Translations under genes and position numbers: made by a program | Assembly: GCA_023488685.1 (NCBI GenBank) | Contig: JAMDDR010000084.1 | Location: 1,916 to 65,915 of the forward strand | Length of the DNA stretch: 64,000 nt | Direction of reading: 5' to 3' | Source: Chloroflexota bacterium | GTDB taxonomy: Bacteria > Chloroflexota > Anaerolineae > J036 > Brachytrichaceae | Shown: positions 12,260 to 39,841 of the stretch, one piece after another | Position numbering within the stretch: the first letter of the stretch is position 1 | Layout: each line of letters opens with the position of its first letter | The notes under the pieces: model-generated | Told to the model about the DNA's origin: nothing | Database searches by the model: none | Seen by the model: only the letters and a program-made list of their open reading frames with translations

Positions 12260-12329
12260 GCGCGCGACGAATGGCGCTGGCAAGCCTGACGACGAAACGG
12301 GGTGGTCAGGCGCGTGCGATAATGATTGC

Positions 12330-13388: not shown

Positions 13389-13398
13389 AAAACGCCGT

Positions 13399-13443
13399 AA
13401 ACACCTGGCGCAGGCGCGTTGTTATCGCGCCTGCGCCAGGTGT
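13399..13443 (+). terminator. 19-bp perfect hairpin (probable terminator, no clear U-tract)
   Basis: AACACCTGGCGCAGGCGCG - TTGTTAT - CGCGCCTGCGCCAGGTGTT, immediately after the SIS gene stop. Confidence 0.5.
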
Positions 13444-13469
13444 TCATTCCCAAATATCTGTCTGCCTCA

Positions 13470-14813: not shown

Positions 14814-14823
14814 ACTAGACCCT

Positions 14824-15771: not shown

Positions 15772-15880
15772 TTCAATCGATGAACATCACACCCGTTTAG
15801 CATAATGATTTGATTTGTATGCTTATCGGCAGGGCTGGTGTGCATACGGACGGGTGGAAAGACACTGCTGCTGCACTTAG

Positions 15881-19015: not shown

Positions 19016-21166
19016 CTATTTGATTTCGAACCAGTGTAGCATCAAACTGTTTCCAGCGGCATCGTTGAGCGGGTCGTCGATGGACCGGCGTGTGCCGGAC
19101 GTGCGGTCATAAACGCCGACTCGGACCTGGTACACGCCGGGCTTCAAATTGTCTGGCAAAGCTACCCAATGCGGGTCGGTGACCACCTCGCCCTGTTGCC
19201 AGCGCGAGAAAGGATATGAGCCATACACCGGCTGCTGATCGGCTACCACGATAATTTCACCATTGGATTGGTCGACGATGTGGAGCAGCACAGTGTCATC
19301 CGGTTGCTGCGCTGCGGTGGATTGCCAGTAAAGTTCGACAGCGATCTCTCGTCTAGCCAGATCCACAGCCGCTTTTCCGCCCAGTAACGTCAACCCGCCA
19401 TCGAACACGGCGTTGCGTGTGGCCAGGGTGGGGGAGACCTCAAAGCTGCGAGGTGTGTCTTCAGCCTGGTAGATCACTGTGTTCGGCACCCCGTTACGCT
19501 CATACAATGTTTCCGTGGGGATCAACGTCTTGTGTTGTTTGGCCGCGCTACGTGCGAACACGTCCCAATGCCCTTGGAATGCCGTCGTCTCGGGCGTGTG
19601 AAAGACATAGATGTTCGAAGGATCGCGCAAGAGCACCGTGGAGACATCCGCGAACGTGGGCGATGGTTCCGGCAGATATTCGTACATCTCACGCATGTGC
19701 ACGCGCCCCTCTGTCAGGAACGTGACACTGCGCTCAAAACCCCAGTCCAGCGCAATCACAGGCCGGTTCGCGTAATTCGACTCCAGATCATGGGCGAGTG
19801 TGAAGATGGCATCGGACCACAACCCCCGGCCACCGGTCGTGACCAGGAATGTTTGGATCATCACATTGGTCGCGGTGTGGTTGATAACCAGTATGCCTAC
19901 GCCAACCGATGTGATCACGGCCGCCTGGCGCAGCGACATCCGCTGAGCGAGCCAGGCAAGCATGTCTATGAACGACCATGCGATGAGGAGCCAGGTCAGG
20001 GGTACGATGATGAATAGATGGCGCGCGCCGATGCTGCTGATACTAATCGTCCCCAACGGAATGACGGTGATGACGCACAACAGTAGCAGTAAACGCAGGC
20101 GAACGTAGCGCGGTTGAGCGATATCCGCCGTGGAACTCGTCCTCTGCTCCAGCGAACCTGCCTTGAGAGGTATATCGCTGCGACGACGGATGCATAGCGC
20201 CGCTGTGTAGACCAGGCTGGCGATCAGCGCGAGAGCGCCGAGTGGTAACCCGGCTGGTGCATCGAAGTGCAACGTGTCGCCGCCCAGCATGCGCACAAAC
20301 TCAACCGACTCAAACTGGATATTGCCCAACAGATCGAGGTTGTTATGGCCGTAGGTGCGCGAGCGCACGGCGTTCTCTGAGATGAACTGAAATGAGGCGC
20401 CGGAAGGGATATTGTGCACGATGAATGGCGCAAAGCCAAGGGCGCATGCGCACGCGCACAAGAACAGCGTCTTGATACCGATTGATCGAAGCAGACGCCA
20501 GAAGCCAGGAATGCCCAGGATGAGGATTGCGGTAAGGCCGATCGGCACAACAAGCCAGCTAAAAATCAGCTTCGTGGTCAGGCCCAGGCCAAACACAAAA
20601 GCTGCGGCGATCAGTATTGTGTTGCTGCGCGTGCGCCACCAGCGTGTAAGCAGCAGCAGAAACCCCAGCGCCAATGGCAACAGTGGCTGGGCGAAATGCG
20701 CGCCTGTGCGACTCCACCAGATGTATGCCGGTGCGCTGGCGCACAGGAGAACGGCAATGGCAGCGGTGAGTGGACCGGACCAGGTATGCGCGAGCCACCA
20801 CAGCAGGAAGATCGTGACTGCACCCAATAGCAATTGGCTGGTGCGCAATCCTTGTGTCGTCGTGCCAAACAGCGTCATGCCCACCAGGCTCGTGTAAATG
20901 GAGCTGGGGCCGGTGTAATGGCCCATCATCAAGGGCAGTCGCAATCCGAAGACCGTTACGGTGCTGAATGCGGTCGTCGGAAGGCCGTGGATCAATTCAA
21001 GCGCTGGAACGGCGTCGGCTGCTTCGTCATATTGCAGTCCTGGCAGATCCAGGTTGCTCAGACCAACGGAGAAATAGACCAGGTATGCGATCACCAGAGC
21101 AGTGAGAGCTACTGCGGTCTGCGTTCGTGTATGATTGCGTGCAACGCCCAAATGAGTCTCTACCAA
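19016..21166 (-). CDS. GT-C-fold membrane glycosyltransferase-like protein, class A copy 1 (ArnT/PMT-like) with a C-terminal soluble module
   Basis: 716-aa ORF. A many-TM N-terminal body carries an acidic first-loop motif LQYDEAAD. The soluble C-terminus reads ..ELYWQS..LLHIVDQ..ADQQP..SRWQQGE..YQVRVGVYDRTSG. The start is TTG 21166 or TTG 21151 (no ATG). Confidence 0.65.
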   Translation of the reverse strand: MVETHLGVARNHTRTQTAVALTALVIAYLVYFSVGLSNLDLPGLQYDEAADAVPALELIHGLPTTAFSTVTVFGLRLPLMMGHYTGPSSIYTSLVGMTLFGTTTQGLRTSQLLLGAVTIFLLWWLAHTWSGPLTAAIAVLLCASAPAYIWWSRTGAHFAQPLLPLALGFLLLLTRWWRTRSNTILIAAAFVFGLGLTTKLIFSWLVVPIGLTAILILGIPGFWRLLRSIGIKTLFLCACACALGFAPFIVHNIPSGASFQFISENAVRSRTYGHNNLDLLGNIQFESVEFVRMLGGDTLHFDAPAGLPLGALALIASLVYTAALCIRRRSDIPLKAGSLEQRTSSTADIAQPRYVRLRLLLLLCVITVIPLGTISISSIGARHLFIIVPLTWLLIAWSFIDMLAWLAQRMSLRQAAVITSVGVGILVINHTATNVMIQTFLVTTGGRGLWSDAIFTLAHDLESNYANRPVIALDWGFERSVTFLTEGRVHMREMYEYLPEPSPTFADVSTVLLRDPSNIYVFHTPETTAFQGHWDVFARSAAKQHKTLIPTETLYERNGVPNTVIYQAEDTPRSFEVSPTLATRNAVFDGGLTLLGGKAAVDLARREIAVELYWQSTAAQQPDDTVLLHIVDQSNGEIIVVADQQPVYGSYPFSRWQQGEVVTDPHWVALPDNLKPGVYQVRVGVYDRTSGTRRSIDDPLNDAAGNSLMLHWFEIK

Positions 21167-21168
21167 CG

Positions 21169-23208
21169 ATGAAACCTCGTACTTGCATCGAATTTGCGTT
21201 TCATGGCCGTTCAGTCGTGCTAGGTATCATTCTACTTGGCATCTTTGCACTGTATTCAGGCGCGCTGCGACAGGCGCTCATCTACGATGACCCCGTCAAC
21301 ATCACAGCACTGGCAACCCGCAACATAATCAGCCTATTCGACCTGCATCCCTACGGCACGGGCAACTACCGGCCGATGAGTTTCCTGCCCTGGCTGTTCA
21401 TGCGCGATTGGTTTGGCTGGTTTATCCCCAGCCTGTTGCATGCCTGGAATGTGTGGTCGCACGTACTCAATACAGCGTTGATTGCGTCGTTGGCGTGGCG
21501 ATTGGGTCGTCGTTTCGGCATGCGCAGCACCTTGTTGGCGGTGCTGTGCGGGCTGCGTTTTGGTCTATTTCCATTTTCGTATCAGGCCATTCTATTTGCT
21601 GGCGCCCTGCCACACCCGTTCATGGTCGCATTTGGCCTGGCTGCCGTCCATGCCTATCTGACCGCGCGCGGGCCAGGAAGCAAAGTGCATTTACCTCACA
21701 CGGTGCTGTGGCTGGTATGCATCCTGATGCTGCTCGCGTCCTTACTCAGTCACGAACAGGGCTTTGTATTCGGCGTGTTCATCTTGTTTGCCGATGTCAT
21801 GATCGCGTGGAGTCAGCGAAAGCGCCTGAGCGCCGGCGCATTTGCGGCGTGTGGGATAGCTCTTGCCTATGCGGTTTTCTATCGTCTCTTCATGCAAACC
21901 TATTGGACTGATACGTCGAACTGGGCGACGGGGCCAATGGGGTTATCCGAAATTCTAGCCAACTTTGGCTACCAGGCCCAGGGCCTGGTCTACGGATGGC
22001 TGGTTGCACTGCGCGACTATATCGGATTGCCTGAAAATGGCCAGATCCTCGTCCTTGTGATGCTCGGCGCAACGGCTGTGCTCACCGTGATCAGTTTTGT
22101 GCGCATGCGTTTACTGACCCTGGGTGTCATTACGGCGGGCTGGTGGTTGGTGGCTGTTGCTCCGTCGGTGTTATTGACGTCGCCCAACTATCTGCAGGTG
22201 AGCCCACGGCTCATGTACGTGCCATCCATTGGCGCCAGCCTGTTGCTGGGCATGTTGCTTGTTGCATGGGTGCGGTTGGTACGCCGGCCGTTGTTCCAGG
22301 GGGTCATCATTGCAGCGAGTCTTATCCTGCTGGCCTGGTGCGCGGGTTATATTGCGGATCGGTCGACTGAGAGCGATCATCTGGCAGTGGCGTTCAACCA
22401 GATCGATGCCGATTTGCAGCATTCTGATCCTTCGGCGCAGGTGCTTCTCATCAACCTGCCCTGGTGGAGCATCCCCGCGCGCCCGACATTCCCCATCGGC
22501 GTAGAGAGCATGCCGATCTACCTGGAGGGGGCCATGTCGCCATCTGACTACCTTGGCACCGTCAGTAATACCCGGCGCCAGACGGCACATATCCGGCATG
22601 ATATCTCTCTGACACACGGTGATCGTTACATGTATGGGATTGTAGGCGTGCCGCGGGATGATGCCGCACTGCGTGACGCTATCCTCAAATCGAACTACAT
22701 ATTCCGCTTTGACTATGACGATCCCTGGTTACGCGCGCGCCGATTGGCGATCGTCACTCTGGATCAAGGGGACGATGTTGTTGCCCGGCTGTCTGACGGT
22801 AAGGCACGTGTTATTCTGAGGGCGGCCAGCGCGCGCGCCTGTGAAAACCGTCTCAGGTTGGACTTGATCTGGGCCGATGTGGATAGCGCGGGTGAGTCAT
22901 TGGGTGTCTTTGTGCACGTGCTGGATAAGCAAGGGGCGCAGGTGCTTGCTGCCGATCGTGACCTGTTGGAGGGCTATTTACCCCTTGACCAGGTGCCAGA
23001 TAAGACAAAGGTCGCCGAGACACGCGAGATCGTATTGCCACAGCAGGTGGGTGAGGGGTCGTTTGATGGCCTGGCGGTGAGTGTGGGTGTTTACAACCGG
23101 GCGGACGTGAAGCGATTGGCTGCCGTGCGACAGAACGGCAGTATGTGGGAGGGCGACGCCATAACCGTGCCCGTGCGTGTTGAATCATGCCAAATGCCGT
23201 TCAATTAA
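21169..23208 (+). CDS. GT-C-fold membrane glycosyltransferase-like protein, class B copy 1 (TMTC/DUF1736-like N-terminus) with a C-terminal module
   Basis: LIYDDPVN...YRPMSFLPW...LLHAWNVWSHVLNTALIA, then about 10 TM segments. C-terminus: LDLIWAD..GVFVHVLDKQG..ADRD..VSVGVYNR. ATG 21169 (MKPRT..) aligns with the MTKPR start of its paralogue. Confidence 0.65.
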   Translation: MKPRTCIEFAFHGRSVVLGIILLGIFALYSGALRQALIYDDPVNITALATRNIISLFDLHPYGTGNYRPMSFLPWLFMRDWFGWFIPSLLHAWNVWSHVLNTALIASLAWRLGRRFGMRSTLLAVLCGLRFGLFPFSYQAILFAGALPHPFMVAFGLAAVHAYLTARGPGSKVHLPHTVLWLVCILMLLASLLSHEQGFVFGVFILFADVMIAWSQRKRLSAGAFAACGIALAYAVFYRLFMQTYWTDTSNWATGPMGLSEILANFGYQAQGLVYGWLVALRDYIGLPENGQILVLVMLGATAVLTVISFVRMRLLTLGVITAGWWLVAVAPSVLLTSPNYLQVSPRLMYVPSIGASLLLGMLLVAWVRLVRRPLFQGVIIAASLILLAWCAGYIADRSTESDHLAVAFNQIDADLQHSDPSAQVLLINLPWWSIPARPTFPIGVESMPIYLEGAMSPSDYLGTVSNTRRQTAHIRHDISLTHGDRYMYGIVGVPRDDAALRDAILKSNYIFRFDYDDPWLRARRLAIVTLDQGDDVVARLSDGKARVILRAASARACENRLRLDLIWADVDSAGESLGVFVHVLDKQGAQVLAADRDLLEGYLPLDQVPDKTKVAETREIVLPQQVGEGSFDGLAVSVGVYNRADVKRLAAVRQNGSMWEGDAITVPVRVESCQMPFN

Positions 23209-23950: not shown

Positions 23951-26023
23951 TCAACGCTGCTTGATGGCAAGATTCACGCCGTTCTCGGGACTCTTTCCAT
24001 TCTCTGACACATTCACACCCTGGATATCAGGATAGCCATAACTTCCGATGCGGACATAGGCTGGTTCGGAAGGCATCGGGCCGGTGAAGGGAATGTCAAA
24101 CCGTTGCAAAAGATAGTCACCCACACGCCAGGACAACGGGTGGATGCCACTCCCATCAAGCTGGCCGAGTTTCGTGTCTCTGTCGAACAGGTGGTTGTAC
24201 CAGTGATAATCCACATTCTGGGGTGGTTCCTGGAACACGCGCAACACTGTTTCGACGCGCACTGCGTTGTTCACCGCTGAGATGCGGTAATGAGTCAGTT
24301 CGACGCCGCTTTCCCACTGCGCCGGCTGTGTTTGTGTAAAGTCACTCAAGTCGGGCATTTGTTTGACGCGCACGTAAACATAGCCACTGTTTAGCTCTGC
24401 TCGGATTGGTGTCATGCTGGTGATGACGTCGGAGGGTTTCAGGTAACTGAGTAAGCCCGCTAATGTGTTCTCAGTCCCGGGTGCGAAGATGTATGAGGTT
24501 CCTTCTGGCCGGAAGACCCAGCCATCGATATAGCTGTTGAGGAAACGATAAGGCATGTCGGCCAGCACCACCCCCAACAACAGGCCTTGTTCATGCCACG
24601 GCGTGACATAGTCTGGGACGACGACGACAACATCACCGTTAACACCCTCAGCCGCCGCTTGCCTGGCATGTTGGGCAGCTATCCACGCGCTACGCACCGG
24701 TAGTCCATAGCCGCCGTTGCTGGTGTCATGTTGCTCTACAAAATCCGCGAAACGCACCACGGTCGTGCACTGCCACAGGGTGATGACGCCTACCGTCACG
24801 GCTGCAAGCGCGGCGGTGGCTGTGCGTAGCCAGGCAAAGGTTCTCAGACGTGTTGCGTATGCCAGCACGCGATCGACGCCCAATCCCATCAGAATAAACG
24901 GCGCCGGGTAAAGCGGCAGCAGATAGTGCATTTGGATGGGTTGGGAATGTCGCATCTGCATCAATACAGGGATGCACCACCATGCCAGGAGCAACCAGAG
25001 GCCTATCCAGGGCGCACAGTTCCAGCGGCGTACGTGCCGTATGCAGACGACGGCCAGCAGCGGAATGCTGCTGGCAAGTAGGGCGATCTGGAGCGTCTCA
25101 ATCCCATTAAGCATCGCAGGAAGCTGGGCAACCCACATCCCGTAGGCGCCGTCCGTCAGATCACTGAGATGAGTGCCACCACTCTGCCACAGCGCGATGC
25201 GCAACGAGTCCAGGCTGAACGTCGCCTGCGCACCCCCAAAACCTAATATGGCGCGCGCGTTGCCAAACCCTTGTGTCGCGTCGTATCCCAGGTAGATAAT
25301 CGCCAGTGCAGCCAGGGGCAACAACCCCACCAGAGCAGGCATGGGGCGCAGCGTTCGCCAGCCCAGTAACACAGCGACAACCACAATCGGGACCAGATAG
25401 AGTGCAGACAGGTGAGAGCCTGTACACAGCGCCAGCCCCAGCCCCGCGATGGCCCATCCCCACGGGTTGCGGCGCTGCAGTGCCTCAAGCAGGCCGAATA
25501 AAAGGATGGCCGAGAACAACGGTGGTTGCAGGATGCCCAGGTTGCGAGAGAAGTAAACCGCCCAAGGCGCTGTCGCGAATAACAGTGTGGCGATCACCGC
25601 GACGCGCCCGTTGAAGTACCGCACGCACAGCGCCCAACACACTGCCACGGCCAATATGTCGAGCATGGCACGGTAAGCCGTGACGACGATGAAATCGTGT
25701 GTGAGGAGATAGGGCAATGCCAGTGTATACAAGTACACTGGCGGATGATTGGCGACTGAACCACTGTAAGGCGCCATGGACAACCAATGCCCATCTATGA
25801 TATCCAGAGCGAACCGTAGAGACGACGCCTCATCAAATCGCAGGTCTATCAGGTCGAAGCGGTAGAGACGCAGGAACACTGCGATTACAATGATGATGAA
25901 GGCGAGCAGGGGCCTCGCGTGCTTGTGTTTCGATACAGGGGAGATGCTTTGACGCAGACTCGACATGATCTTGAGTATGCCATAGCCCTTGCAAACCTTC
26001 ACAAGGCTGTTAGCTATTAACAC
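23951..26023 (-). CDS. GT-C-fold membrane glycosyltransferase-like protein, class A copy 2
   Basis: 690-aa ORF with first-loop RFDEASS and a many-TM body. C-terminus: VDYHWYNHLFD..GQLDG..LSWRVGDY..YVRIGSYGY. The longest ORF starts at GTG 26023; ATG 25966 (MSSLRQ) is an alternative. Confidence 0.65.
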   Translation of the reverse strand: MLIANSLVKVCKGYGILKIMSSLRQSISPVSKHKHARPLLAFIIIVIAVFLRLYRFDLIDLRFDEASSLRFALDIIDGHWLSMAPYSGSVANHPPVYLYTLALPYLLTHDFIVVTAYRAMLDILAVAVCWALCVRYFNGRVAVIATLLFATAPWAVYFSRNLGILQPPLFSAILLFGLLEALQRRNPWGWAIAGLGLALCTGSHLSALYLVPIVVVAVLLGWRTLRPMPALVGLLPLAALAIIYLGYDATQGFGNARAILGFGGAQATFSLDSLRIALWQSGGTHLSDLTDGAYGMWVAQLPAMLNGIETLQIALLASSIPLLAVVCIRHVRRWNCAPWIGLWLLLAWWCIPVLMQMRHSQPIQMHYLLPLYPAPFILMGLGVDRVLAYATRLRTFAWLRTATAALAAVTVGVITLWQCTTVVRFADFVEQHDTSNGGYGLPVRSAWIAAQHARQAAAEGVNGDVVVVVPDYVTPWHEQGLLLGVVLADMPYRFLNSYIDGWVFRPEGTSYIFAPGTENTLAGLLSYLKPSDVITSMTPIRAELNSGYVYVRVKQMPDLSDFTQTQPAQWESGVELTHYRISAVNNAVRVETVLRVFQEPPQNVDYHWYNHLFDRDTKLGQLDGSGIHPLSWRVGDYLLQRFDIPFTGPMPSEPAYVRIGSYGYPDIQGVNVSENGKSPENGVNLAIKQR

Positions 26024-26069
26024 AGTGTCTGACCGGCCCGTCTTGCATTAAACTGTGACTCACAGAACA

Positions 26070-28061
26070 ATGATGATGACGAAACCTCGCGCGCTGAAGC
26101 GCAACCTTCTCATTGCCGGCATCGCATTTGGTGTTTTCGTGTTATACGCACCATCTGTTCGGCTCATGCTTTTTCATGACGACGCGCCTGCCGCGCTCTG
26201 GATGACCGGTTATAACCCGATCAGCATCTTTGCCATGCGTGACGACATTGGCATCGCTGATCGCCCCATGGCCAATGTGCTGTGGGTCTTGACGCGCGAG
26301 TTGTTTGGCTGGTATATCCCGGCCATCACGCACATGTGGAACCTGTGCGCACATGTGCTGAACACCGTTTTGATCGCTGTGTTCGCCATCCGCCTGGGCC
26401 GTCTTTCCGGGTTACACAGCCCCGTATTTCCGCTCATTTGTGCGCTCATCCTGGGCCTTTTCCCCTTCTCTTACCAGGCGATCCTGTGGGCTAATGCGTT
26501 TTACCACCCCCTGGCGGCAATGTGGGGTTTGTTTATGCTGAACGCCTATTGGTTCGCGCGCAGCCGGCGCCAGGCACGCTGGTGGTTGTTGTGTGTCGTA
26601 CTCCTGGGCGCAGCCTGGCTTTCGCATGAGTCGGGCTTTATATTCGGTGTGCTGGTGCTTGGGCTGGAGTTGCTGCAAGTCCTGGTTGCCAGACAGCGTC
26701 CGAGCGTTGGTGCCATCGCCGTGGGTACATTGGGACTCATCTACCCGCTTGCCTACCGTCTGCTTCTGCCTCCAGTGTGGTTTGACGAAGTCGTGACCGT
26801 TGAGTCCGTGGTTTCGAACCTGATCTATTCCATGCAAGGTTTTGTGAGCTGGTTGTTGATCCTGGTTCGCGCACAGATAGGTCTGTCCGATGCAGTTGAC
26901 ACTATCATATTGGTGCTGTTCATCGGTAGTGTGGCGGCGGCGTCGATCTGGCTATTTCGTCAACGGAAGCTTCTTGTAGGCCTGTTTGCGCTGGCGTGTT
27001 GGGCAATCGCAACAGTGCCGTTATTACTGCTGGATACGTCGTACGTGCGTTTCAGCCCACGCTTGCTCTACATCGGTTCGATCGGCATAGCCCTGTTCTG
27101 GAGTATCGTGACGGTTACGCTCCTTGGCGTTATCCGTCGCCCTGGGCTACGAGCCGCCTTCGCAATCGCGCTGGTCGTGCTCTTTGCCTGGTGTGTGCCG
27201 TTTGTGGTTGACCGCCAGAACGAGACCGCCCGCCTCACACCGGCGATGAAATTGATTGATAACGATTTACACACGGCCAGTCCCGATGCGACCGTGCTGC
27301 TCATCAACATGCCGTATTGGAGTGCGCCCGCGTACCCCGCATTTCTCATCGGTTCGGAAGGAATGCCGATCTTTCAAAGCTCCGATACACCGGCCTGGTC
27401 GTGGCTGGCAGCAACCAGCGGAACGTGGCGTGAGATGAGCTACGTGCACCATGATATTTCCTTGACGCGGGGCGATCGCTATTTCTACGGGATCCCAGGC
27501 AAAATCGTCGACGATACGGCGCTACGTGCGCGAATCCTGTCGTCTAACTACACTTATCGCTTTGATTATGACTCGCCAGGGTTGCGTGCGCGCCGCCTGG
27601 CAATCATCGGTACTGACAAGACCACTGCGCCGCCGTTGGCCAAGCTGGCTGACGGTGAGACCAGCGCTGCCCTGCGTGAGGCGCATGCCGCCAGGTGCGC
27701 TGACCGCATCGCGCTTAACCTGACCTGGTCCGACGTGCGCAACATGGCGCAGCCGATAGGCGTCTTCGTGCACGTCTTCGACGAACAGGACCGCCAGGCA
27801 ATCGTGGCCGACCGCGACTTGATCGACGGGTATCTGCCGCTGGACCAGGTTCTGCCGAACGTCGTCATCACCGAGACGCGCGAGGTCACCATCCCTGCCA
27901 ACGTGGCAACAGTGAAGGACATCCGCCTCGGCGCATATCTGCGCTCGGATGGCAAGAGGCTGACAGCTACTCGCTCAGATGGTAGTGCCTGGGATGGCGA
28001 TGCGATCGTTGTGCCCATCCAGCCGGAGGACGAGGATCTGTGCCGCTTACTGGGTCGCTAG
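26070..28061 (+). CDS. GT-C-fold membrane glycosyltransferase-like protein, class B copy 2
   Basis: A clear paralogue of 21169-23208 along its whole length, e.g. FHDDAPA, HMWNLCAHVLNTVLIA, HHDISLTRGDRYFYGI and SNYTYRFDYDSPGLRARRLAII. ATG triplet at 26070-26078; the longest ORF starts at GTG 26055. Confidence 0.65.
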   Translation: MMMTKPRALKRNLLIAGIAFGVFVLYAPSVRLMLFHDDAPAALWMTGYNPISIFAMRDDIGIADRPMANVLWVLTRELFGWYIPAITHMWNLCAHVLNTVLIAVFAIRLGRLSGLHSPVFPLICALILGLFPFSYQAILWANAFYHPLAAMWGLFMLNAYWFARSRRQARWWLLCVVLLGAAWLSHESGFIFGVLVLGLELLQVLVARQRPSVGAIAVGTLGLIYPLAYRLLLPPVWFDEVVTVESVVSNLIYSMQGFVSWLLILVRAQIGLSDAVDTIILVLFIGSVAAASIWLFRQRKLLVGLFALACWAIATVPLLLLDTSYVRFSPRLLYIGSIGIALFWSIVTVTLLGVIRRPGLRAAFAIALVVLFAWCVPFVVDRQNETARLTPAMKLIDNDLHTASPDATVLLINMPYWSAPAYPAFLIGSEGMPIFQSSDTPAWSWLAATSGTWREMSYVHHDISLTRGDRYFYGIPGKIVDDTALRARILSSNYTYRFDYDSPGLRARRLAIIGTDKTTAPPLAKLADGETSAALREAHAARCADRIALNLTWSDVRNMAQPIGVFVHVFDEQDRQAIVADRDLIDGYLPLDQVLPNVVITETREVTIPANVATVKDIRLGAYLRSDGKRLTATRSDGSAWDGDAIVVPIQPEDEDLCRLLGR

Positions 28062-28125
28062 CGACGCGCGCCTAATATAATGCCCCTGTCAGACCGTTTA
28101 TTGGGTTCAAGAGGTGAGGAAAACT

Positions 28126-30118: not shown

Positions 30119-32326
30119 GTGATACTTTCACGCTCCGTCGTTCCCCATGACTCACGCCGATATTCGCGGTTGTTCGTTGCCGGCATTGTGCTGGTTTTCG
30201 TGGCGTTGTGCGTGGCGTACAACGTAGCATTGCCGCTATTTGAGGCCCCCGATGAAGGCGCGCATTACATCTATGTTGACTACATCGCCCGCAACCGCGC
30301 GTTGCCGAGTATGGACGAACTGCCGTCGCACGAGGTGTCACAACCGCCGCTGTACTACGTCCTCAGCGCGCCGCTCATCGCCTGGATCGACCGGAGCGAC
30401 TTCAGTGAGGTATACCGGCCCAATCCCGGTCTGGATAATGGCATTGTCAACGATCATCTGCCGAAAGAACGACAGATGCCGCCCACCGGTGTGACCCTTG
30501 CGCTGCGCATGCTGCGACTTTTCTCAACTGTGCTGGGCGCCATCACAGTCGTCCTGGTGTATGCAACGGTGAAGGTCATGTTCAACAGCGAGGAGGTGGC
30601 GCTGCTCGCGATGGCCGTGACCGCGTTCAACCCCAAGTTCCTCCACATGAGCAGCCAGTTCAACAACGATATTGCGGTGGCCTGTGCGGCGGTGCTGAGC
30701 TTGTGGGTGGGTGTGCGTATGGTCAAACAACCCGGCGCGCCGTCGTGGCTGTCGTTGCTGGCCCTTGGCGCATCGGTTGGGGTGGCGACGGCGACCAAGT
30801 ACAGCGGCATGGCGCTGGCGGCTCCGGCTGCGTTCGTGGTTGCCTGGTGCGCCGTGAGCCAGGGACGGCGTGGGATGGGCACAACGCTGCGGCAAACAGC
30901 ACGTTCCGTTGTGCCGATCTTCCTCAAGTGGGGTGTCATTTGTGTCGTTGGGTTTGCGTTGACTGGGGGCTGGCTGTTGCTCTACAACATGTTACGTTAC
31001 GGTCACCCACTCGCGGCGACGCAGTTCCAACGCGCACACGCCCTCGGCATACGCCCGATCCCCCTTTCCCTGGAAGAAATCCTGGCGCGGCTCCCGAAAG
31101 TGCTCACCAGTTACTGGGGAGAGTTTGGCCACGGTGTGCAGTTCCCGCCCGCCGTCGATACCGTCATGATGGTGATCGCAGGTGTCGTGGCTGTGGGTGT
31201 GGTCATTGCACTGATCCGGCGTGAACTGCCGCAGGAGTTGAGTGTTCTCCTGGTCGTCGGGGTGGTTACCTTTGCCACGTTCATCATCTGGATGCGCAAT
31301 CAGACCGGCACCGAGAACAGCCGTCTGCTTTCGCCTGCATTTGCCGCGGTGTCGGCACTGAGCGCTGCCGGGTTGCTCGCGTGGCTCCCACGGCGTATCA
31401 GGGCGGCCGGAGTGGTGGTGTTGTCGGGGGTGAGCGTCGCCGGCGCGGTTGCCGGTCTCTTTTTATCGTTGATCGCAGGTTATGCGACACCGACCTATTT
31501 AACCGAGCTGGAAATCGCATCATTGCCCTCCCAGGCTGTGGCGCGGTTTGACAATGGTATTGAACTGGTGGCCGCATCCGTCAACCCCAACCGTATCGTT
31601 CCCGGGCATGAGCTTGAACTGAGTGCGTACTGGCGTGCCACGCAACCGATTACCGATGTGTACCGCGCCGTCGTGGAGGTGCGCGACGAACAGAACAGTC
31701 TGATCGGGCGGATGAGCCAGTTGCCTCTTGCCGGCCGGTATGCCACCACGCAGATGGAGGTGGGACGCGTCTTTCGCGACGAGTATCACCTGGAAATCAG
31801 CGCAACATCGCGCAGTGTGGCGCGTGTATTTATAGGTTGGTACCAACAGCGCCCGCCGAACACGGTATCGCACGTACAAGGGAGTGGTGCTGTTGGTGCG
31901 CAGGTCGGTCTGATCAAAGTGCGCGGCGCACAACCTGTCGCCATGATTCCTACGACGCCTTTCAGCAGCACATTCAGCAGTATCGCCGGTCTTGAAGGCT
32001 ATCAAGTGGAGGGTGATACGCTCACGTTATTCTGGCGTAGCCTGGGTGCACCCGCGCAGGATTACACCGTCTTCGTTCACGCGTTGGACCAGAATGGCCA
32101 GATCATCGGGCAGGCCGATGCGCCTATCGCATACCCCATGTCGCTGTGGGATGCGGGCGAGCAGATTGTCGATGAGCATCACGTGAGCGCAATCACTGGA
32201 GCCGCGACGTTGCGGATCGGGCTCTACGATCCGGCAACAGGACAACGCTTGTCCGTTCAGGATGCAGCCGGCACTCCCTGGCCAGACGACGCTGTCGATT
32301 TGCCTGTGGTCAAGGCCACTCCATGA
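30119..32326 (+). CDS. GT-C-fold membrane glycosyltransferase-like protein, class C copy 1 (PMT_2/ArnT-like), C-terminal module duplicated
   Basis: First-loop FEAPDEGAHY and QPPLYY, about 12 TM segments. C-terminal repeats: ELSAYWRAT... and LTLFWRSLGAPAQDYTVFVHALDQNGQ..QADAP..SLWDAGE..LRIGLYDPATGQRL. The start was set to GTG 30119, downstream of the acs hairpin; the longest ORF starts at 30050. Confidence 0.65.
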   Translation: MILSRSVVPHDSRRYSRLFVAGIVLVFVALCVAYNVALPLFEAPDEGAHYIYVDYIARNRALPSMDELPSHEVSQPPLYYVLSAPLIAWIDRSDFSEVYRPNPGLDNGIVNDHLPKERQMPPTGVTLALRMLRLFSTVLGAITVVLVYATVKVMFNSEEVALLAMAVTAFNPKFLHMSSQFNNDIAVACAAVLSLWVGVRMVKQPGAPSWLSLLALGASVGVATATKYSGMALAAPAAFVVAWCAVSQGRRGMGTTLRQTARSVVPIFLKWGVICVVGFALTGGWLLLYNMLRYGHPLAATQFQRAHALGIRPIPLSLEEILARLPKVLTSYWGEFGHGVQFPPAVDTVMMVIAGVVAVGVVIALIRRELPQELSVLLVVGVVTFATFIIWMRNQTGTENSRLLSPAFAAVSALSAAGLLAWLPRRIRAAGVVVLSGVSVAGAVAGLFLSLIAGYATPTYLTELEIASLPSQAVARFDNGIELVAASVNPNRIVPGHELELSAYWRATQPITDVYRAVVEVRDEQNSLIGRMSQLPLAGRYATTQMEVGRVFRDEYHLEISATSRSVARVFIGWYQQRPPNTVSHVQGSGAVGAQVGLIKVRGAQPVAMIPTTPFSSTFSSIAGLEGYQVEGDTLTLFWRSLGAPAQDYTVFVHALDQNGQIIGQADAPIAYPMSLWDAGEQIVDEHHVSAITGAATLRIGLYDPATGQRLSVQDAAGTPWPDDAVDLPVVKATP

Positions 32327-33296: not shown

Positions 33297-35522
33297 TCAT
33301 TTCAGTACGATACTGCCATCAGCCCAGTCGCTCCCATTGGATTTGAGCGCGCGAAAACGCTGGCCTGTGTCTGGGTCATAGACGCCTACCTGGATGGAAG
33401 CGGTCTGCGCTAGACCGGGTACCTCAATACGCTGTTCGAACAGCTCGCCCTGACTCCAATAGGCTGCGGAGTACTCAAAAGGAACATCGTGCTGCCTGGC
33501 GATCTTCTGTTGTGCGTCCAACCCGTGTACAAAGATGGTGTAATTCTTCGCCGGCTCGGTTGTCGCACGCCAGTTCAAGATGACGGTGTCGCTTTCAACG
33601 CGGGCAGACACCAGATCCGCCAGATTTTCCAGTGTAGCGAGCGGCGTTGTGTCGATCGGCGTGGTTGCTTCGGGGCCGCGAACTTTGATCCGCCCAATCT
33701 CAACACTGACGGATGGATTATCGACTGGTCGAATCAACCCCCCTCCATCCAGCCACCAGCCTACCAATATCCGCAAAACCTCTCCTTTACTGGTGTCGGG
33801 CGTGATCTGGTAATTCTCGCGCAACGGCCGGCCCACCTGCCACGCGCGGGGGACATAGCTATAGCGTATGACGGTGCCTGTATTCAGAGCCCCTACGGTC
33901 TTGTCCTGTGAGTTGCGTATGTCCAACATCAGGTGCGCTGAGGTGGTCAAGGGTGTCGTCGTGCGCCACACGACGCTCAATTCGATAGGGGAGCCACTAT
34001 CGATGCGCTGTTTTTGAAGTTGCACATCCAACAGCTCGATCCCATTCTCGAATCTGATCCGCCCGGCATCAGGGCGATTCAAGAGATTGCGCGCTTCGGC
34101 TTCATTTAAGTACTGTGGAAAGGCGTACATCTCGTTCAGCGAATCGTAAAGAGTGACCGATGTGAATAGACCATATACGACGGTCACGAACACGGCGAAT
34201 CCCTTTTGCCAGCGCTTCGGCACGAACACCAATATACCCATGGCAATCAGCAGGGTAATGGGGATGTACATGGGTGAGAAGAAGCGCATATTCTGCGTCG
34301 AATCGCGCGAGCTCATCCAGGAATAATAGGTGATGATGTTCACCACGATTGCGGCTAGCATTGGCCAGTAGGCAGCGCCCAGCCTACGCCGTACCATCAG
34401 CCATACCGCGCCTGCTATACCCACCAGAAACACGGCGTACATGAACTCGTTGTGCCGGTTAGGCCAGGTGAAGATGAAGCCCGGGTGTGCAAAATAGCTC
34501 TTTAAGATGAACGGCAACCATTCCAATGTGTTTTGCAGCGTGCGTGGTGTTGTCAGGTTGGCCGGGTTCATCTCGTTGACCCGATTCCATGCCAGGAGGT
34601 CGCCGTAAAGTTGCCAGTTGTGCACGAAGTAAGCGCCGGTGACTAGCAAGGCGCCTGCGGCTAATAACGCGCCGTTGAGGAACAGCCACCTCAATGAATG
34701 CCGCGATCGGATCATGCGCACGAGGATGGCAAATGCGGCGGCAACCACGACGACCCCGCCGCTATATTTCGTCAACAGCGTCAAACCAGCCAGTATCCCC
34801 AACAGAAATGAATGAGTGAACGGTGGCTCTTTCTCCGTTAAGGTGAAATGGACAACCAATAGGAGTGTCAGTGCTGCCATGCACCCGACTGCCATGTCGT
34901 TCGAAATGGCGCCGCTGAGCACCAGGTTACGCGGGTTGAACGCCAACAGTGTCGTTGTGAGCACGGCAATTTCGGCTCGCCGGGTCAATTTGAGGGTGAT
35001 GTAATACGCGCAGATGACGACGACGGCTCCCATCAGCACCGTGGCAAAGCGTACGAGGTGCCCGGCCAACACCTGGCCGGTGCCCAGGCTCCCGTCATCG
35101 CTGGGTAAGTAGTTCCCGTACATCCCGTTGGGTGCGCCACCTTGTAAGAGCACTTGCTCTTGCATCAGGTCGCCTCGCGGGATCAACGCAACCAACCGGC
35201 CCATGAGCATGTAATACAACGGCGGTTGGGTCGCTTCATGGGTCTGCCAATAGGGCGCGGCGCTATCGCCAGTGGTGAAGTGCTTGTTCAGGTTGGGCAG
35301 CGGGCGGCCGAGTGCGTAATGCTCCACATATGCGTAGTGCCAGCCCTCATCTGCCCCCTGATAGAGCGGTGTTTTGAGGCTGACCATGACTCCCAGCACG
35401 ACGAAGATGCCGGTTATGGCCCAGGCGAGAATGGGTGAGGCCACTACGAGCGCGTTAGCGCGCGTGAACCAGTGGCTAACGGTATGTGAGGTTGCTGCCA
35501 GCGATGGGTGACCGGTTCGCAT
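33297..35522 (-). CDS. GT-C-fold membrane glycosyltransferase-like protein, class C copy 2
   Basis: 741 aa with YQGADEGWHY and QPPLYY. C-terminal repeats: IELSVVWRTT... and VILNWRATTEPAKNYTIFVHGLDAQQ..RQHD..AYWSQGE..IQVGVYDPDTGQRF. Confidence 0.65.
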   Translation of the reverse strand: MRTGHPSLAATSHTVSHWFTRANALVVASPILAWAITGIFVVLGVMVSLKTPLYQGADEGWHYAYVEHYALGRPLPNLNKHFTTGDSAAPYWQTHEATQPPLYYMLMGRLVALIPRGDLMQEQVLLQGGAPNGMYGNYLPSDDGSLGTGQVLAGHLVRFATVLMGAVVVICAYYITLKLTRRAEIAVLTTTLLAFNPRNLVLSGAISNDMAVGCMAALTLLLVVHFTLTEKEPPFTHSFLLGILAGLTLLTKYSGGVVVVAAAFAILVRMIRSRHSLRWLFLNGALLAAGALLVTGAYFVHNWQLYGDLLAWNRVNEMNPANLTTPRTLQNTLEWLPFILKSYFAHPGFIFTWPNRHNEFMYAVFLVGIAGAVWLMVRRRLGAAYWPMLAAIVVNIITYYSWMSSRDSTQNMRFFSPMYIPITLLIAMGILVFVPKRWQKGFAVFVTVVYGLFTSVTLYDSLNEMYAFPQYLNEAEARNLLNRPDAGRIRFENGIELLDVQLQKQRIDSGSPIELSVVWRTTTPLTTSAHLMLDIRNSQDKTVGALNTGTVIRYSYVPRAWQVGRPLRENYQITPDTSKGEVLRILVGWWLDGGGLIRPVDNPSVSVEIGRIKVRGPEATTPIDTTPLATLENLADLVSARVESDTVILNWRATTEPAKNYTIFVHGLDAQQKIARQHDVPFEYSAAYWSQGELFEQRIEVPGLAQTASIQVGVYDPDTGQRFRALKSNGSDWADGSIVLK

Positions 35523-36393: not shown

Positions 36394-38712
36394 CTATTTG
36401 ATGCGCAGTCGTATCATCTCAATCTCCGTGTTGATGTATTGACCGCTCTCGTCGTAGGCACCCAAGCGTGAAAAATCCTTGGGAGAGTATAGCACCAGCA
36501 ACAAGCGATAAACGCCTGGTGATGCGTCAGCATTGATTTGCAGGATATGGGGATCAATAATGACCTGGCCAGGGATCCAGGAGGACGTTGGCGCATTCCC
36601 CTCAACCGGTGTTGAATCGTGCTGGGCGACCTTATTGGCCTTGTCATCCAGGAGTTGCAGTGACACCGTATAGTCATCCCCAATCTTGCGTTCCGTGCGC
36701 CAACGTAGTGTCACGGTCATGGCTGTACCGGGGCCTGCGCTGCGAGGTTGAACATCATAGCTGGTCAGGCTAATTCCATTGTCATAATTTAGTAGCGCTA
36801 TTGGGCTTTGGGCAAACGGTACCAGTTCAGCCTGACCGAACACAATACCCTGTTCACTATCTGTGCCGTGTGTCACGGTTAAACGTTGCCCTGTTTGTAG
36901 GTCATACAGGCCCACTGCCCATCGCAACCTCTGTGGCGCGAGTGTTAGGTGAGGAACGCGCGCAGCATAATGATCCGTCCAGCGATAGCCGGGTGATAAC
37001 TCGCTTGTCGCCAGAGAGCCCTGACCGGGGTACATATCACGCTGGGCGACGATGACATCATCCTCGTTGATCAGGTGGACAAATACACTGTAGTTGTCCG
37101 GTAGCGGCTGGCGTGCGTGCCAATACAAGCGTACGGTTGCCTCGTCCCCCGGCTCGACAGATGGTGTTAGCAGATCGTAACCGATCAGATCGAGTCCATC
37201 GCCAAACGTGATGTCAAGCGGATGGGAGGGGGAGACATTCGTGGGAGCAGGTTGCGCATAGGCAGACATGATGATCGCGAATGGTACAGACACCGCAAGC
37301 ACGATCAAACCGGCGCTCGCAACCCATAGCACCGTGCGATGGATATGGTATAGCCCGAACGCAAACCATGCGGCAATGACGGCGATGCAGGGGAACATGA
37401 GCCTGCCCTGTGACGCGGGCGTGAGCGAGGTCCATCGCACCAGTGCAGCGAACGTAATGGCTACCCACGCGGCACTGATGACGAGTGCTGCATGGCGAAT
37501 GAGGAGCGGCTGGTCTTGCCCCGGCGTTGGATATTCTTGCCCGGTCTTTCGTCTCAAAATCGCCCAAACCGCGCCGGCAGATGCCATGACGGCAGCCCCA
37601 TTTAGAACATCGTAAACCAGCGGTGGCATGATGACGTTGAGTGTGCCAAACACTCCCCAATAAGCCCAGACAAAGCCCTCACGCTCACTCCATAGCTGTG
37701 CCAGTGAGGCGGGGGGGGCACGCCGGCCAACGACATCCAGGAATGCGCTCCATCCTAATGGATCACCGTATAACTGTTGGTTACGTATGAACCACCAGCC
37801 CGCGAGGATGGCCGTAACGGCAATAACGATCAGGATGAAACGCGCCATCCGCGCTATCAGGCCGAGGACACTCCCACCTGGGCGCAATGTGTAATGTTTA
37901 AATCCTGCGAATAACGTGGATAGCGCAAGCAATCCGATAAGGCCCAGCGTGCTCGATTTACTGAGTGCGGCCGCCGCTGTGATCAAGCCCGCTATGAGCG
38001 CCGCGCGGATGGATAGATCGGCGCGCCGCGCTGTGTGTAATGCCCACCACAGTCCCAGGGTTCCGAACATGGCAGCGGCGTTGTCATTATTAACTGAACC
38101 GCTGATAAACGCGAACATGGGGATGAATGCTGTAAAGACCATCGTGCCGAGGCGTATAAAGGCACCCTGATCAGTTGGAAGCGAGGCTGCGCCTGTATTG
38201 GAATTGAGTGTGCGGTCACCACCACCAATTCTTGGAAATAGCTCACACGCTACCAGGTAAGCGAAGAATACCGTCGCGGTGGAGAACAGGACAGAGACTA
38301 ACCGTGCCAGGTGGACGGCCAGCGTCGCGCGTGTCCAGGGGAATTGCTCGGCGGTAGTGTGGAGGATGGCGTTGGCGTTGCCATCGCGCGTCGGCTGTCC
38401 CATGTCGCTGTGTGGGTTGATGCGACGGATCTCCTGCCAGTTGGACGAGTCAACCGGGCCGCTGACGAGGGCCGCAACGGCATAATAAAAGGGAGGTTGG
38501 CTGCCTTCCTGCCGCCAGGGCGCATCCTCGTCGCTCTGATCGCGGCGCTGTTCGGGCAGCGAACCAGTCGTTGCCAGATGGCGGACAAGCGGATAGTGCC
38601 ATAGCTCGTCCGAAGCCTCGAACAGGGGAGTCGCTATGCTGTATAAGCTGAAGAGAAGCAGCGCCGCCACGAGCAGCAAGGCCGCACTGACTCTCTCGGC
38701 GCGCACACTCAC
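36394..38712 (-). CDS. GT-C-fold membrane glycosyltransferase-like protein, class C copy 3
   Basis: 772 aa with FEASDELWHY and QPPFYY. Two clear C-terminal modules: ATVRLYWHARQPLPDNYSVFVHLINEDD..AQRD..WAVGLYDLQTGQRL, and MTVTLRWRTERKIGDDYTVSLQLLDDK..AQHD..SSWIPGQ..YRLLLVLY. The start overlaps the upstream gene's stop by 4 nt. Confidence 0.65.
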   Translation of the reverse strand: MSVRAERVSAALLLVAALLLFSLYSIATPLFEASDELWHYPLVRHLATTGSLPEQRRDQSDEDAPWRQEGSQPPFYYAVAALVSGPVDSSNWQEIRRINPHSDMGQPTRDGNANAILHTTAEQFPWTRATLAVHLARLVSVLFSTATVFFAYLVACELFPRIGGGDRTLNSNTGAASLPTDQGAFIRLGTMVFTAFIPMFAFISGSVNNDNAAAMFGTLGLWWALHTARRADLSIRAALIAGLITAAAALSKSSTLGLIGLLALSTLFAGFKHYTLRPGGSVLGLIARMARFILIVIAVTAILAGWWFIRNQQLYGDPLGWSAFLDVVGRRAPPASLAQLWSEREGFVWAYWGVFGTLNVIMPPLVYDVLNGAAVMASAGAVWAILRRKTGQEYPTPGQDQPLLIRHAALVISAAWVAITFAALVRWTSLTPASQGRLMFPCIAVIAAWFAFGLYHIHRTVLWVASAGLIVLAVSVPFAIIMSAYAQPAPTNVSPSHPLDITFGDGLDLIGYDLLTPSVEPGDEATVRLYWHARQPLPDNYSVFVHLINEDDVIVAQRDMYPGQGSLATSELSPGYRWTDHYAARVPHLTLAPQRLRWAVGLYDLQTGQRLTVTHGTDSEQGIVFGQAELVPFAQSPIALLNYDNGISLTSYDVQPRSAGPGTAMTVTLRWRTERKIGDDYTVSLQLLDDKANKVAQHDSTPVEGNAPTSSWIPGQVIIDPHILQINADASPGVYRLLLVLYSPKDFSRLGAYDESGQYINTEIEMIRLRIK

Positions 38713-39206
38713 GTTGCTGCTTCAGACTCCGTGGTTGGATTACTGGCTGCCATGCGCTCAGTGTGCTCCGCTTCCAGTTTGGAGATACCGTTATTGACGA
38801 CGGTTGTCACACGGTCCAGCTCTTCGCGCAGCCGGGCGAGCGTCTCCAGGGCGTAGTTGTCGGCCTCGGCGCGCATGCGCTCGACCTCGCGCCGCGCACG
38901 TTCCTCTATCGCCTGTGCACGGCCCTGCGCTATGGACATTACCGCCGTGTCGTCGGCAAGGTGCGCAGCTTCTTCGCGGGCCAGCTCACGAATGCGATCA
39001 GCCTCTTCCTTAGCCTGCGCCAAGATGCGATCGTGCTCCTGCTGGATGCGTTGTGCTTTTTTGATCTCCTCGGGGATCGCGAGTACCATTTGATCAATCA
39101 ACTGAAAGCACCGGTCTGCATCCACCAGACGCATCTTGGTGCCGGGTACGCGTCGACTTTCAAGAAGAATGGCTTCGAGTCGTCCCAACAGATGTTGAAT
39201 GTCCAT
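38709..39206 (-). CDS. coiled-coil protein (ATPase subunit-b/H-like or DivIVA-like heptad region), function unknown
   Basis: 165 aa from ATG 39206 (MDIQHLLGRLE...). The central region is charged Glu/Arg/Ala-rich. The longest ORF (39392) would overlap coaD. Confidence 0.5.
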   Translation of the reverse strand: MDIQHLLGRLEAILLESRRVPGTKMRLVDADRCFQLIDQMVLAIPEEIKKAQRIQQEHDRILAQAKEEADRIRELAREEAAHLADDTAVMSIAQGRAQAIEERARREVERMRAEADNYALETLARLREELDRVTTVVNNGISKLEAEHTERMAASNPTTESEAAT

Positions 39207-39283
39207 AGTGAATAAGTATGAACTGACTGTTAACAACTGGCAAGTGCCCCCGGCACTTGCTGAGCCTAACCACGCCAGCGTCT

Positions 39284-39841
39284 TCAGCCGGTTGAGGACA
39301 CTGCGTTCGAATTCCTGCCTGCTGTAACGATAGCTTCTTGTGGCTTGACCTGCGTCAATTGGCGTTTCTTGATAATGGCCGTTGAGACGCAAGGCGGCAC
39401 AAGCTCGGAAACATCACCTCCTAAGGTTGCCACTTCGCGCACCAATGTCGCGCTCACGAAGGTGTGGGGTTCGTTCGCGAACAGGCACACGATTTCAACA
39501 TCGCTCGCTAACCAGTGATTCGTTTGGGCCATCTGCCACTCGAAATCGAAGTCCACACCATTGCGTAGCCCGCGAATGATCACTTGCGCCCCTTGCTGGC
39601 GCGCAAAGTGCACCGTCAAGCCGGAATAGCCGATGACAGACACGCGATTATCGTGATTCAATGGCGCCAACGCTTCATGAGCCAGCGCGATCCGCTCTGC
39701 GTGCGTAAAGAGCATCTGCTTTGAGGGTGCTATATACACGCCCAGGATGAGACGATCAAACAATGCCATGGCACGTTTTGCGATGTGCAGATGTCCATTA
39801 TGGAACGGGTCGAAAGTGCCCGGGTAAACCGCCGTAATCAT
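39284..39841 (-). CDS. coaD: phosphopantetheine adenylyltransferase
   Basis: AVYPGTFDPFHNGHL (HxGH motif) and SATLVREV. It carries a C-terminal tail about 25 aa longer than usual. Confidence 0.88.
   Translation of the reverse strand: MITAVYPGTFDPFHNGHLHIAKRAMALFDRLILGVYIAPSKQMLFTHAERIALAHEALAPLNHDNRVSVIGYSGLTVHFARQQGAQVIIRGLRNGVDFDFEWQMAQTNHWLASDVEIVCLFANEPHTFVSATLVREVATLGGDVSELVPPCVSTAIIKKRQLTQVKPQEAIVTAGRNSNAVSSTG

Follow-up and report, generated by a model that had tools for sequence, protein, structure and literature searches.

A homologous C-terminal β-sandwich module on seven GT-C-type membrane proteins encoded at one Chloroflexota locus

The DNA analyzed here (the "window") is a 64,000 nucleotide stretch of contig JAMDDR010000084.1 (positions 1,916 to 65,915, forward strand) from a Chloroflexota bacterium of the Brachytrichaceae (assembly GCA_023488685.1); all positions given below are those of the window. 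Between 19.0 and 38.7 kb it contains seven long open reading frames (ORFs) that are rich in hydrophobic segments and whose N-terminal parts fall into three classes: A1 (19016–21166, minus strand), B1 (21127–23208, plus strand), A2 (23951–26023, minus strand), B2 (26055–28061, plus strand), C1 (30050–32326, plus strand), C2 (33297–35522, minus strand) and C3 (36394–38712, minus strand). All seven appear by profile or fold to be GT-C-type glycosyltransferases, and all seven end in one homologous module, which is present once in A1, A2, B1 and B2 and twice, in tandem, in C1, C2 and C3. A scan of the window's ORFs with the module hidden Markov model (HMM) found it in no ORF beyond these seven.

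An initial annotation of this DNA had described the module under the interval 36394–37210, which is the last ~272 residues of C3 and comprises both C3 copies. The first of these (C3a; residues 497–634, 36811..37224, minus strand) has an HMM score of 139.9 bits and strands predicted by AlphaFold2 (AF2) from residue 497 to 630, with predicted local distance difference test (pLDDT) values above 90, and it is canonical in its YSVFVHL, AQRD and VGLYDLQTGQRL segments. The second (C3b; residues 640–772, 36397..36795, minus strand) scores 149.9 bits, has predicted strands from 641 to 771, and retains W671, D699, the PT..W..G motif, PGVY and Y742; the translations of both copies were checked. C1 (plus strand) has a divergent first copy (residues 496–628, 31535..31933) and a second copy (636–758, 31955..32323) that is the most canonical in the window, and the two C2 copies (minus strand; residues 489–612, 33687..34058, and 622–741, 33300..33659) score 117.3 and 115.1 bits, respectively. 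The single copies lie at 19019..19420 in A1 (minus strand, residues 583–716), 23954..24331 in A2 (minus strand, residues 565–690, highly divergent), 22792..23205 in B1 (plus strand, residues 556–693) and 27642..28058 in B2 (plus strand, residues 530–668). The peptide strings quoted in the initial annotation were all found at their places in these translations. It had put the length of the module at ~100 amino acids (aa), and the copies are in fact 120–139 aa with nine strands; the F/Y-x-N/D-G-I/L element that it had set ahead of the module is, in the AF2 models, the β1–β2 turn of the module's own first hairpin.

The homology of the module across the seven ORFs is far above chance by several independent comparisons. 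In BLASTP searches between the classes only the C-terminal ends align (for example, A1 residues 612–698 with residues 660–738 of C1, in its copy b, at 40% identity and 58 bits), and each class C protein is matched twice. An HMM built from the six class C copies, leaving the other classes out, gave 68 bits for A1, 41 for B2, 26 for B1 and 11.3 for A2, with none of 7,000 shuffled full-length proteins scoring above 6.8 bits; HMMs made from class A only, class B only or both together likewise recover the remaining classes. When a profile of 25 B-class homologs was compared with one of 63 C3 orthologs by hhalign, the sole match was the module (98% probability, E = 1.7e-13). A2 is the weakest case, and it is linked to the module family through intermediate sequences (phmmer and jackhmmer). 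The claim that all seven paralogs share a C-terminal module is thus well founded, with BLASTP, leave-one-class-out HMMs, hhalign and shuffled controls in agreement, and the motif similarity on which it first rested is significant; the tandem arrangement in class C is borne out by the double BLASTP matches, the HMM and the AF2 strands of C3.

The membrane domains are more divergent. Pfam PMT_2/PMT matches above cut-off are found in A1 (38.5 bits), A2 (33.2), C1 (56.5 and 45.1) and C2 (34.9 and 50.0), and there are none in C3, B1 or B2. C3 was assigned to GT-C by fold, its model matching Pmt4, ArnT, ALG9 and Pmt1-2. The membrane parts of A1 and A2 match one another over 468 columns (local hhalign, 99%), the A2-class and C3-class profiles match over 133 columns (98%, E = 1e-14), and the B-class and A2-class profiles match over 186 columns (96.6%, E = 6e-10); no match between the B and C3 membrane parts was detectable by hhalign. 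By these profile comparisons the A, B and C classes are deeply diverged members of one GT-C superfamily, and attachment of the module to GT-C enzymes, as the initial annotation had it, holds through the PMT_2/PMT matches, the C3 fold match and the B–A hhalign link. Class B is not recognized by Pfam, and its connection to PMT_2 consists of the profile–profile comparison and two distant B homologs that carry PF13231. This scaffold is also rare: a word-indexed search of 5.8 billion proteins gave 24 homologs, 16 of them close, compared with more than 1,000 for C3.

An acidic dyad lies directly after the first transmembrane helix (TM1) in all seven proteins. It is DE in classes A and C (A1 residue 47, A2 64, C1 68, C2 58 and C3 35) and DD in class B (B1 54, B2 42); D54 is invariant and D55 nearly so among class B proteins, and D35 and E36 are nearly invariant among C3 orthologs. 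The classes also differ in what follows the last membrane helix: ahead of the module, A1 (~429–582, window ~19421–19882), A2 (~424–564), B1 (~411–555) and B2 (~386–529) have a soluble stretch of ~145 aa that has no Pfam or NCBIfam match and looks α/β by eye. Class C lacks this stretch, and its first module copy directly follows the membrane domain.

Searches of the seven proteins and of the excised modules at E values up to 10 gave no above-threshold Pfam-A or NCBIfam match on the module; the Plectin, FBA and BcsE matches in these scans were sub-threshold or spurious and were rejected as its identity. Sequence searches of the PDB with the module profile and with a family consensus built from 183 representative copies gave chance matches or none, and no Pfam carbohydrate-binding module (CBM) family matched the window proteins or the consensus. 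The best Pfam match of the consensus is Wzt_C (PF14524; 16.5 bits over 93 residues, E = 0.0087), which is below the gathering cut-off of 30.4 bits, and the window copies themselves have no Wzt_C match at E values up to 10. The next-best families, all sub-threshold, are NPCBM_assoc, ML (PF02221; 15.9 bits against a cut-off of 22.7), DUF4832 and MG2. Weak matches to the same families recur in 50 full-length representatives (ML in 13, DUF4832 in 12, NPCBM_assoc in 8, MG2 in 5, and Wzt_C in 4, the last counted as any match at E up to 1). DUF4832 was pursued as a lead and dropped, as the literature on it held nothing useful, and no description of the module was found in the literature searched. Carriers are named in NCBI as "glycosyltransferase family 39 protein", "DUF2723 domain-containing protein" or "hypothetical protein", and the module is never reflected in the name. 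The module therefore matches no named family above threshold in Pfam-A, NCBIfam or the PDB sequences, the initial annotation not having recognized it as one either, and as far as these libraries go it maps to no well-described family.

This unnamed family is very large. An exhaustive profile search of 1.84 billion representative proteins gave 26,755 (counted as clusters at 50% identity) at E ≤1e-3 and 17,578 at E ≤1e-10. In the best 150 of the 26,755 the module is always C-terminal and is present in two to four tandem copies (one to four over all proteins examined), and at least six hydrophobic segments lie upstream in 107 of them, the remainder being mostly fragments. The N-terminal parts of 50 of these 150 match PMT_2 (38), PMT (12), TMEM260-like/DUF2723 (9), PTPS_related (8), YfhO (4), DUF2142 (2), STT3 (2) and ALG9-like (2), all of which are, by family assignment, GT-C-type membrane families. 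All representatives that bear a source name are from Chloroflexota. In a genome scan with C3 the nearest homologs (58–60% identity) are from Chloroflexota or uncultured metagenome-assembled genomes (MAGs) and one Thermoflexales MAG, and more distant ones are from MAGs of Thermoflexales, Roseilinea, Brachytrichaceae and other Anaerolineae.

The initial annotation had asked whether the module occurs outside GT-C proteins, and in the small part of the family inspected no such case was seen. Among 181 module ORFs in 79 related loci (up to 8 in one 22-kb locus), 174 have the module after at least four membrane segments, and the exceptions are at contig ends or frameshifts. A word-indexed search gave 18 short "stand-alone" module proteins; the two of these that were traced, on long contigs, adjoin truncated PMT_2 genes and lie directly downstream of them, so they are split PMT_2 genes and were rejected as modules outside a GT-C context. 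On three MAG contigs, at 2420–4636 in locus L080 and at 2341–4507 in L081 and L082, a PMT_2 gene is likewise broken up into two or three ORFs that follow one another on the same strand, the last of which has the module; they may represent pseudogenes, frameshifts from sequencing or genes that are truly split. In other Anaerolineae MAGs, six to eight consecutive same-strand GT-C genes with one to three module copies each occupy the whole of locus L033 and positions 5021–20466 of L025; L033 also contains a 1,679-aa frame (10870–15906) with two module copies in mid-protein (residues 505–788), which may be a fused or read-through gene pair.

The predicted structures are confident ones. The AF2 model of full-length C3 (63 orthologs; pLDDT 92.3, predicted template modeling score [pTM] 0.92) has eleven long membrane helices by our count followed by two all-β domains at residues 497–630 and 641–771, and the high pTM of the whole protein suggests that the modules are held in a fixed arrangement on the membrane domain. 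The model of the single copy C3a (34 sequences) has nine strands and a pLDDT of 96.3. It is predicted to be an immunoglobulin-like (Ig-like) β-sandwich, within the Ig-like/E-set type of two-sheet Greek-key sandwiches of seven to nine strands, which agrees with the β-rich character first proposed for the module. In a Foldseek search of the PDB with full-length C3, the membrane part matched Pmt4, ArnT, ALG9/ALG12 and Pmt1-Pmt2, and the tandem sandwiches matched the tandem macroglobulin (MG) domains of complement C3b and transglutaminase barrels. With C3a alone the best matches were the Wzt C-terminal domains 2r5o, 6o14 and 8dl0 (E = 4e-5 to 1e-4, template modeling [TM] score 0.53–0.55), with root-mean-square deviations of 5.5–9.4 Å for 2r5o and 6o14 and many other sandwiches scoring almost equally; after Wzt came NPC2/ML, RhoGDI, GM2 activator, MD-1/2, Unc119, a GH3 C-terminal domain, a porphyran-binding CBM and CARDB. 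A search of viral models in BFVD gave generic sandwiches only, among which a "WztC-like" protein recurs. The CBM-like or Ig-like sandwich sought in these searches is thus present as an Ig-like one with modest matches (TM ≤0.57), and the fold, as modeled, is a generic Ig-like sandwich that has no close solved relative.

Conservation over the 183 representative copies is concentrated in a few segments. The Trp of β3 is nearly invariant (0.99) and the Y-x-V-F-x-H-L-x-D of β4 is conserved at 0.72–0.85. Next come a Q-x-D at the end of β5 (0.81 and 0.94), P..G..P-T..W..G-E in the β5–β6 loop (0.73–0.98), the Asp that opens β6 (0.86), P-G-x-Y (0.9), G-x-Y at the end of β7 (0.89 and 0.96) and R-L past the β7–β8 turn (0.80 and 0.91). 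C3a retains the H/Q/D/G-Y-D-R set without the second Trp and P-G-x-Y, and C3b does the converse. In the modeled strand order the start of β6, the end of β7 with its following turn, and probably the end of β5 with its long loop would share one pole of the sandwich.

The initial annotation had placed the module outside the cytoplasmic membrane, and the features that bear on this are predictive ones. Hydropathy counts give 8–11 segments per protein, which leaves helix parity unfixed, so the AF2 count for C3 (11) was used. The N-terminus and the even-numbered loops are richer in Lys and Arg than the odd loops in every protein, marginally so in B2, and because of this bias the acidic dyad is predicted to fall on the outer side. 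The C-terminus of PMT enzymes is luminal. Class B adds a pair of cysteines that brackets the module (Cys572, invariant, and Cys688, nearly so, in B1 at window ~22840 and ~23188, with equivalents in B2); their conservation suggests that they form a disulfide. Cysteine is entirely missing from the modules of classes A and C. From the Lys/Arg bias, the position of the dyad, the eleven helices as in PMT and the class B Cys pair we infer that the module is extracytoplasmic.

The seven GT-C ORFs are interspersed with ordinary genes for an acetyl-CoA transferase, a GT2 glycosyltransferase, an acetate-CoA ligase, a ThuA-like protein and a Bax1-I family protein, and a cytidylyltransferase gene and RecG lie downstream of the array. 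The acetate-metabolism genes (acetyl-CoA transferase, 17634–18935; acetate-CoA ligase, 28114–30045) are interleaved with the GT-C genes in relatives as well, and a functional link is not evident. The GT2 gene (248 aa, 23187–23933, plus strand; Pfam Glycos_transf_2, E = 1.7e-26) lies between B1 and A2 and encodes the sole cytoplasmic glycosyltransferase of the cluster; its 5' end overlaps the 3' end of B1 by 22 nucleotides. Its NCBIfam likenesses to PpgS, ArnC, AglJ and dolichyl-P-hexose transferases are weak and all below cut-off; by sequence it may be a candidate synthase of the polyprenyl-phosphate-sugar donor for the GT-C enzymes. The divergent A1 and B1 ORFs, taken at their longest, share 40 nucleotides at their 5' ends (21127–21166), and the public gene call for B1 has 679 aa rather than the 693 of the longest ORF; the true starts of both probably lie further in, which would leave a short shared promoter region between them. 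An unannotated minus-strand ORF of 227 aa (orf227, 38709–39392) has a stop that overlaps the C3 start by 4 nucleotides, and its position in the order RecG–cytidylyltransferase–orf227–C3 is kept in all close relatives. Apart from a weak likeness to ATP synthase subunit b (32 bits) it gives no signal; its product could be a coiled-coil protein, anchored in the membrane, that partners C3.

Of the five loci closest to the window, four (L001, L003, L004 and L022) keep the order RecG–cytidylyltransferase–orf227–C3–Bax1-I–ThuA–C1–acetate-CoA ligase–B2, and A2 is next after B2 in L001 and L004. The fifth, L002, keeps the part from RecG to ThuA and continues with acetate-CoA ligase–A2–A1–acetyl-CoA transferase, with neither C1 nor a B gene. 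C2 has no counterpart in any of these five loci, where ThuA adjoins Bax1-I, and it appears to be a lineage-specific extra paralog or to have been lost elsewhere. There are two B-class copies in L022 and three on one ENA contig, and more distant Anaerolineae have same-strand arrays of six to eight C-like paralogs. The GT-C/module family evidently expands and contracts by tandem duplication.

How the module came to be shared is a separate matter. The initial annotation had it shuffled onto three different scaffolds; its presence behind several GT-C types stands, and shuffling is not established, as the scaffolds are themselves distant homologs. The occurrence behind several GT-C Pfam types is compatible with shuffling and with ancestral fusion alike, and the sequences fit an ancestral fusion with later duplication and divergence no less well than they fit shuffling, the data accommodating either order of events. 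The shared C-terminus could accordingly descend from one ancestral GT-C-plus-module gene, whose membrane domains diverged while the module stayed recognizable and was duplicated in class C. The homology of the membrane domains (A1–A2 99%, A2–C3 98%, B–A2 97% by hhalign) speaks for such descent, as do the conservation of the module between B and C3, which equals or exceeds that of the membrane core (the module is their sole hhalign match), the arrays of five to eight paralogs in other Anaerolineae, which indicate ongoing tandem duplication, and the variable paralog content of syntenic relatives (C2 absent, B copy number different). It has to accommodate, on the other hand, the different architectures of classes A and B (a ~145-aa soluble stretch) and class C (no stretch, two copies), and the module behind TMEM260-like, PTPS_related, YfhO and DUF2142 domains would need a very old fusion or transfers. 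We hold common descent to be a plausible account, evenly balanced by these difficulties. Since linker architectures differ and several Pfam GT-C types carry the module, duplication, loss or transfer of the module must have occurred at some point.

With respect to function, we favor the reading in which the module serves GT-C enzymes as an accessory domain on the acceptor side, outside the cytoplasm, and most probably binds a glycan or glycoprotein acceptor, and we give this a probability of roughly one half. On this reading the membrane domain (PMT_2/GT39-like and dependent on a polyprenyl-phosphate sugar) would carry the catalytic acidic dyad after TM1, and the modules would sit after the last membrane helix on the outer face, packed rigidly on the membrane domain, where they would bind the acceptor, a cell-envelope glycan chain or a glycoprotein. 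The putative binding site would be the polar and aromatic cluster at one pole of the sandwich (Q-x-D; the P..G..PT..W..GE loop with the start of β6; G-x-Y-D..TG-x-R-L). Binding could position or tether the acceptor for transfer, much as the CBMs of EmbC and AftD do, and copy number (1–4) together with paralog divergence might tune acceptor specificity. The glycan-binding role proposed in the initial annotation is consistent with the agreement of the best fold match and the best weak Pfam match of the module on the carbohydrate-binding domain of Wzt (TM 0.53; 16.5 vs 30.4 bits) and with the near-invariant polar and aromatic positions in the 183 copies, and we infer it from these.

The known systems that come closest are alike in some respects and different in others. 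The mycobacterial GT-C arabinosyltransferases EmbC (PMC3044687), EmbB (PMC7341804) and AftD (bioRxiv 10.1101/2019.12.22.885152) have C-terminal lectin-like CBMs; like the carriers described here they consist of a GT-C membrane domain followed by extracytoplasmic β-sandwich modules, and theirs bind the growing acceptor glycan. Both their GT-C family and their module family are different, however: the PDB profile search shows no sequence relationship, and Emb and AftD chains are absent from the 50 best fold matches listed for full-length C3 and for C3a. The C-terminal domain of Wzt recognizes the capped terminus of the O antigen (PMC9445017). Like the module as modeled, it is a similar-sized β-sandwich on membrane machinery for polyprenyl-linked glycans, and the two may be remotely related; that fold search and weak sequence signal agree on Wzt_C is a lead to such remote homology rather than a sign of membership. 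Wzt-C differs in being cytoplasmic and in following the ABC nucleotide-binding domain of an O-antigen exporter, whereas the module sits behind a GT-C membrane domain, has a predicted extracytoplasmic location, and occurs in tandem arrays. The PMT/ArnT enzymes (PMT_2 PF13231, PMT PF02366; Pmt4 9i5k, ArnT 5f15/5ezm, Pmt1-Pmt2 6p25) resemble the seven carriers in their membrane domain, by Pfam or by fold, and in the dyad after TM1. ArnT has an α/β periplasmic domain. Neither PMT nor ArnT has a C-terminal sandwich of the module type; eukaryotic PMTs have a luminal β-trefoil MIR domain in a loop (PMC7759382).

Several points weigh against acceptor binding. The cytoplasmic location of Wzt-C on an ABC ATPase is a context unlike the module's own. 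The fold matches are low in identity (6–15%) and scattered over many β-sandwich families, which include lipid binders (NPC2, RhoGDI, GM2A and MD-1/2) and plain spacers (MG, CARDB and transglutaminase barrels). Where the conserved residues lie, both in sharing one pole and in relation to the active site, was worked out from the order of the strands and not from coordinates, and several of these residues, the core Trp and the G-x-Y among them, could be purely structural.

This last point leads to the strongest functional alternative, a structural cap or spacer: an Ig-like domain seated on the GT-C extracytoplasmic loops that stabilizes or shapes the acceptor cavity or mediates oligomerization, in the way that ArnT and PglB use their periplasmic domains or complement C3 its MG domains; the conserved motifs would be determinants of the fold or of the interface. 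A core Trp and a G-x-Y are typical structural signatures of β-sandwiches, and rigid docking in the C3 model (pTM 0.92) would be expected of a cap, as would a module that, in the proteins inspected, has never been seen detached from its GT-C domain. Full-length fold matches to tandem MG domains of C3b and transglutaminase barrels, which are scaffolding sandwiches, and weak Pfam matches to MG2, NPCBM_assoc and CARDB-type families point the same way, but the best fold match is a ligand-binding domain. A cap also explains poorly why loop positions with charged or polar side chains (Q, D, T, E, D and R) should be conserved over 183 copies on several scaffolds, beyond what a spacer usually needs, and of three or four tandem copies the distal ones cannot all touch the membrane domain. 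We therefore think the structural role possible but doubtful, and acceptor binding the better reading.

An extension of acceptor binding, which we consider improbable, is that the module defines a GT-C-specific domain superfamily (at least 26,755 clusters) whose tandem copies act as a ruler or processivity clamp, keeping a growing envelope polysaccharide, or else the polyprenyl carrier of that chain, a fixed distance away from the active site, so that copy number (1–4) and arrays of up to 8 genes per locus would encode the diversity of an undescribed envelope or sheath glycan in filamentous Chloroflexota. The least probable alternative is a lipid-binding sandwich of the ML/NPC2/RhoGDI type that would hold, at the outer leaflet, the polyprenyl chain of the donor, released polyprenyl phosphate or a lipid-linked acceptor: GT-C substrates are polyprenyl-linked, the fold matches at E = 1e-4 to 1e-3 include NPC2 (5kwy_D, with the highest TM, 0.57), RhoGDI, GM2 activator, MD-1/MD-2 and Unc119 (TM 0.44–0.57 for the ML/NPC2/RhoGDI sandwiches), and the best of the ML matches in 13 of 50 representatives has an E of 3.2e-5, yet all of these ML matches are below the gathering score, the characteristic disulfide-forming cysteines of ML domains are absent from the module (which has no conserved cysteine pattern, and in classes A and C no Cys), its conserved residues are mostly polar or aromatic and in loops rather than lining a hydrophobic core cavity, and in the solved GT-C structures (ArnT, PglB and PMT) the lipid carrier is bound within the membrane domain.

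GT-C enzymes build envelope glycans and glycoproteins, and beyond a few model enzymes the way in which they recognize acceptors is poorly understood. Emb and AftD already provide examples of a GT-C enzyme with a β-sandwich accessory domain; the present finding adds to that established theme and does not begin a new one. The module nevertheless marks tens of thousands of uncharacterized GT-C proteins on which Pfam and NCBIfam models leave this region blank. Being soluble and well folding, with a pLDDT of 96 in its model, it could serve as a probe for envelope glycans, and a domain name and a ligand would improve the annotation of Chloroflexota genomes and offer a way into the envelope glycans of Anaerolineae-type filaments.

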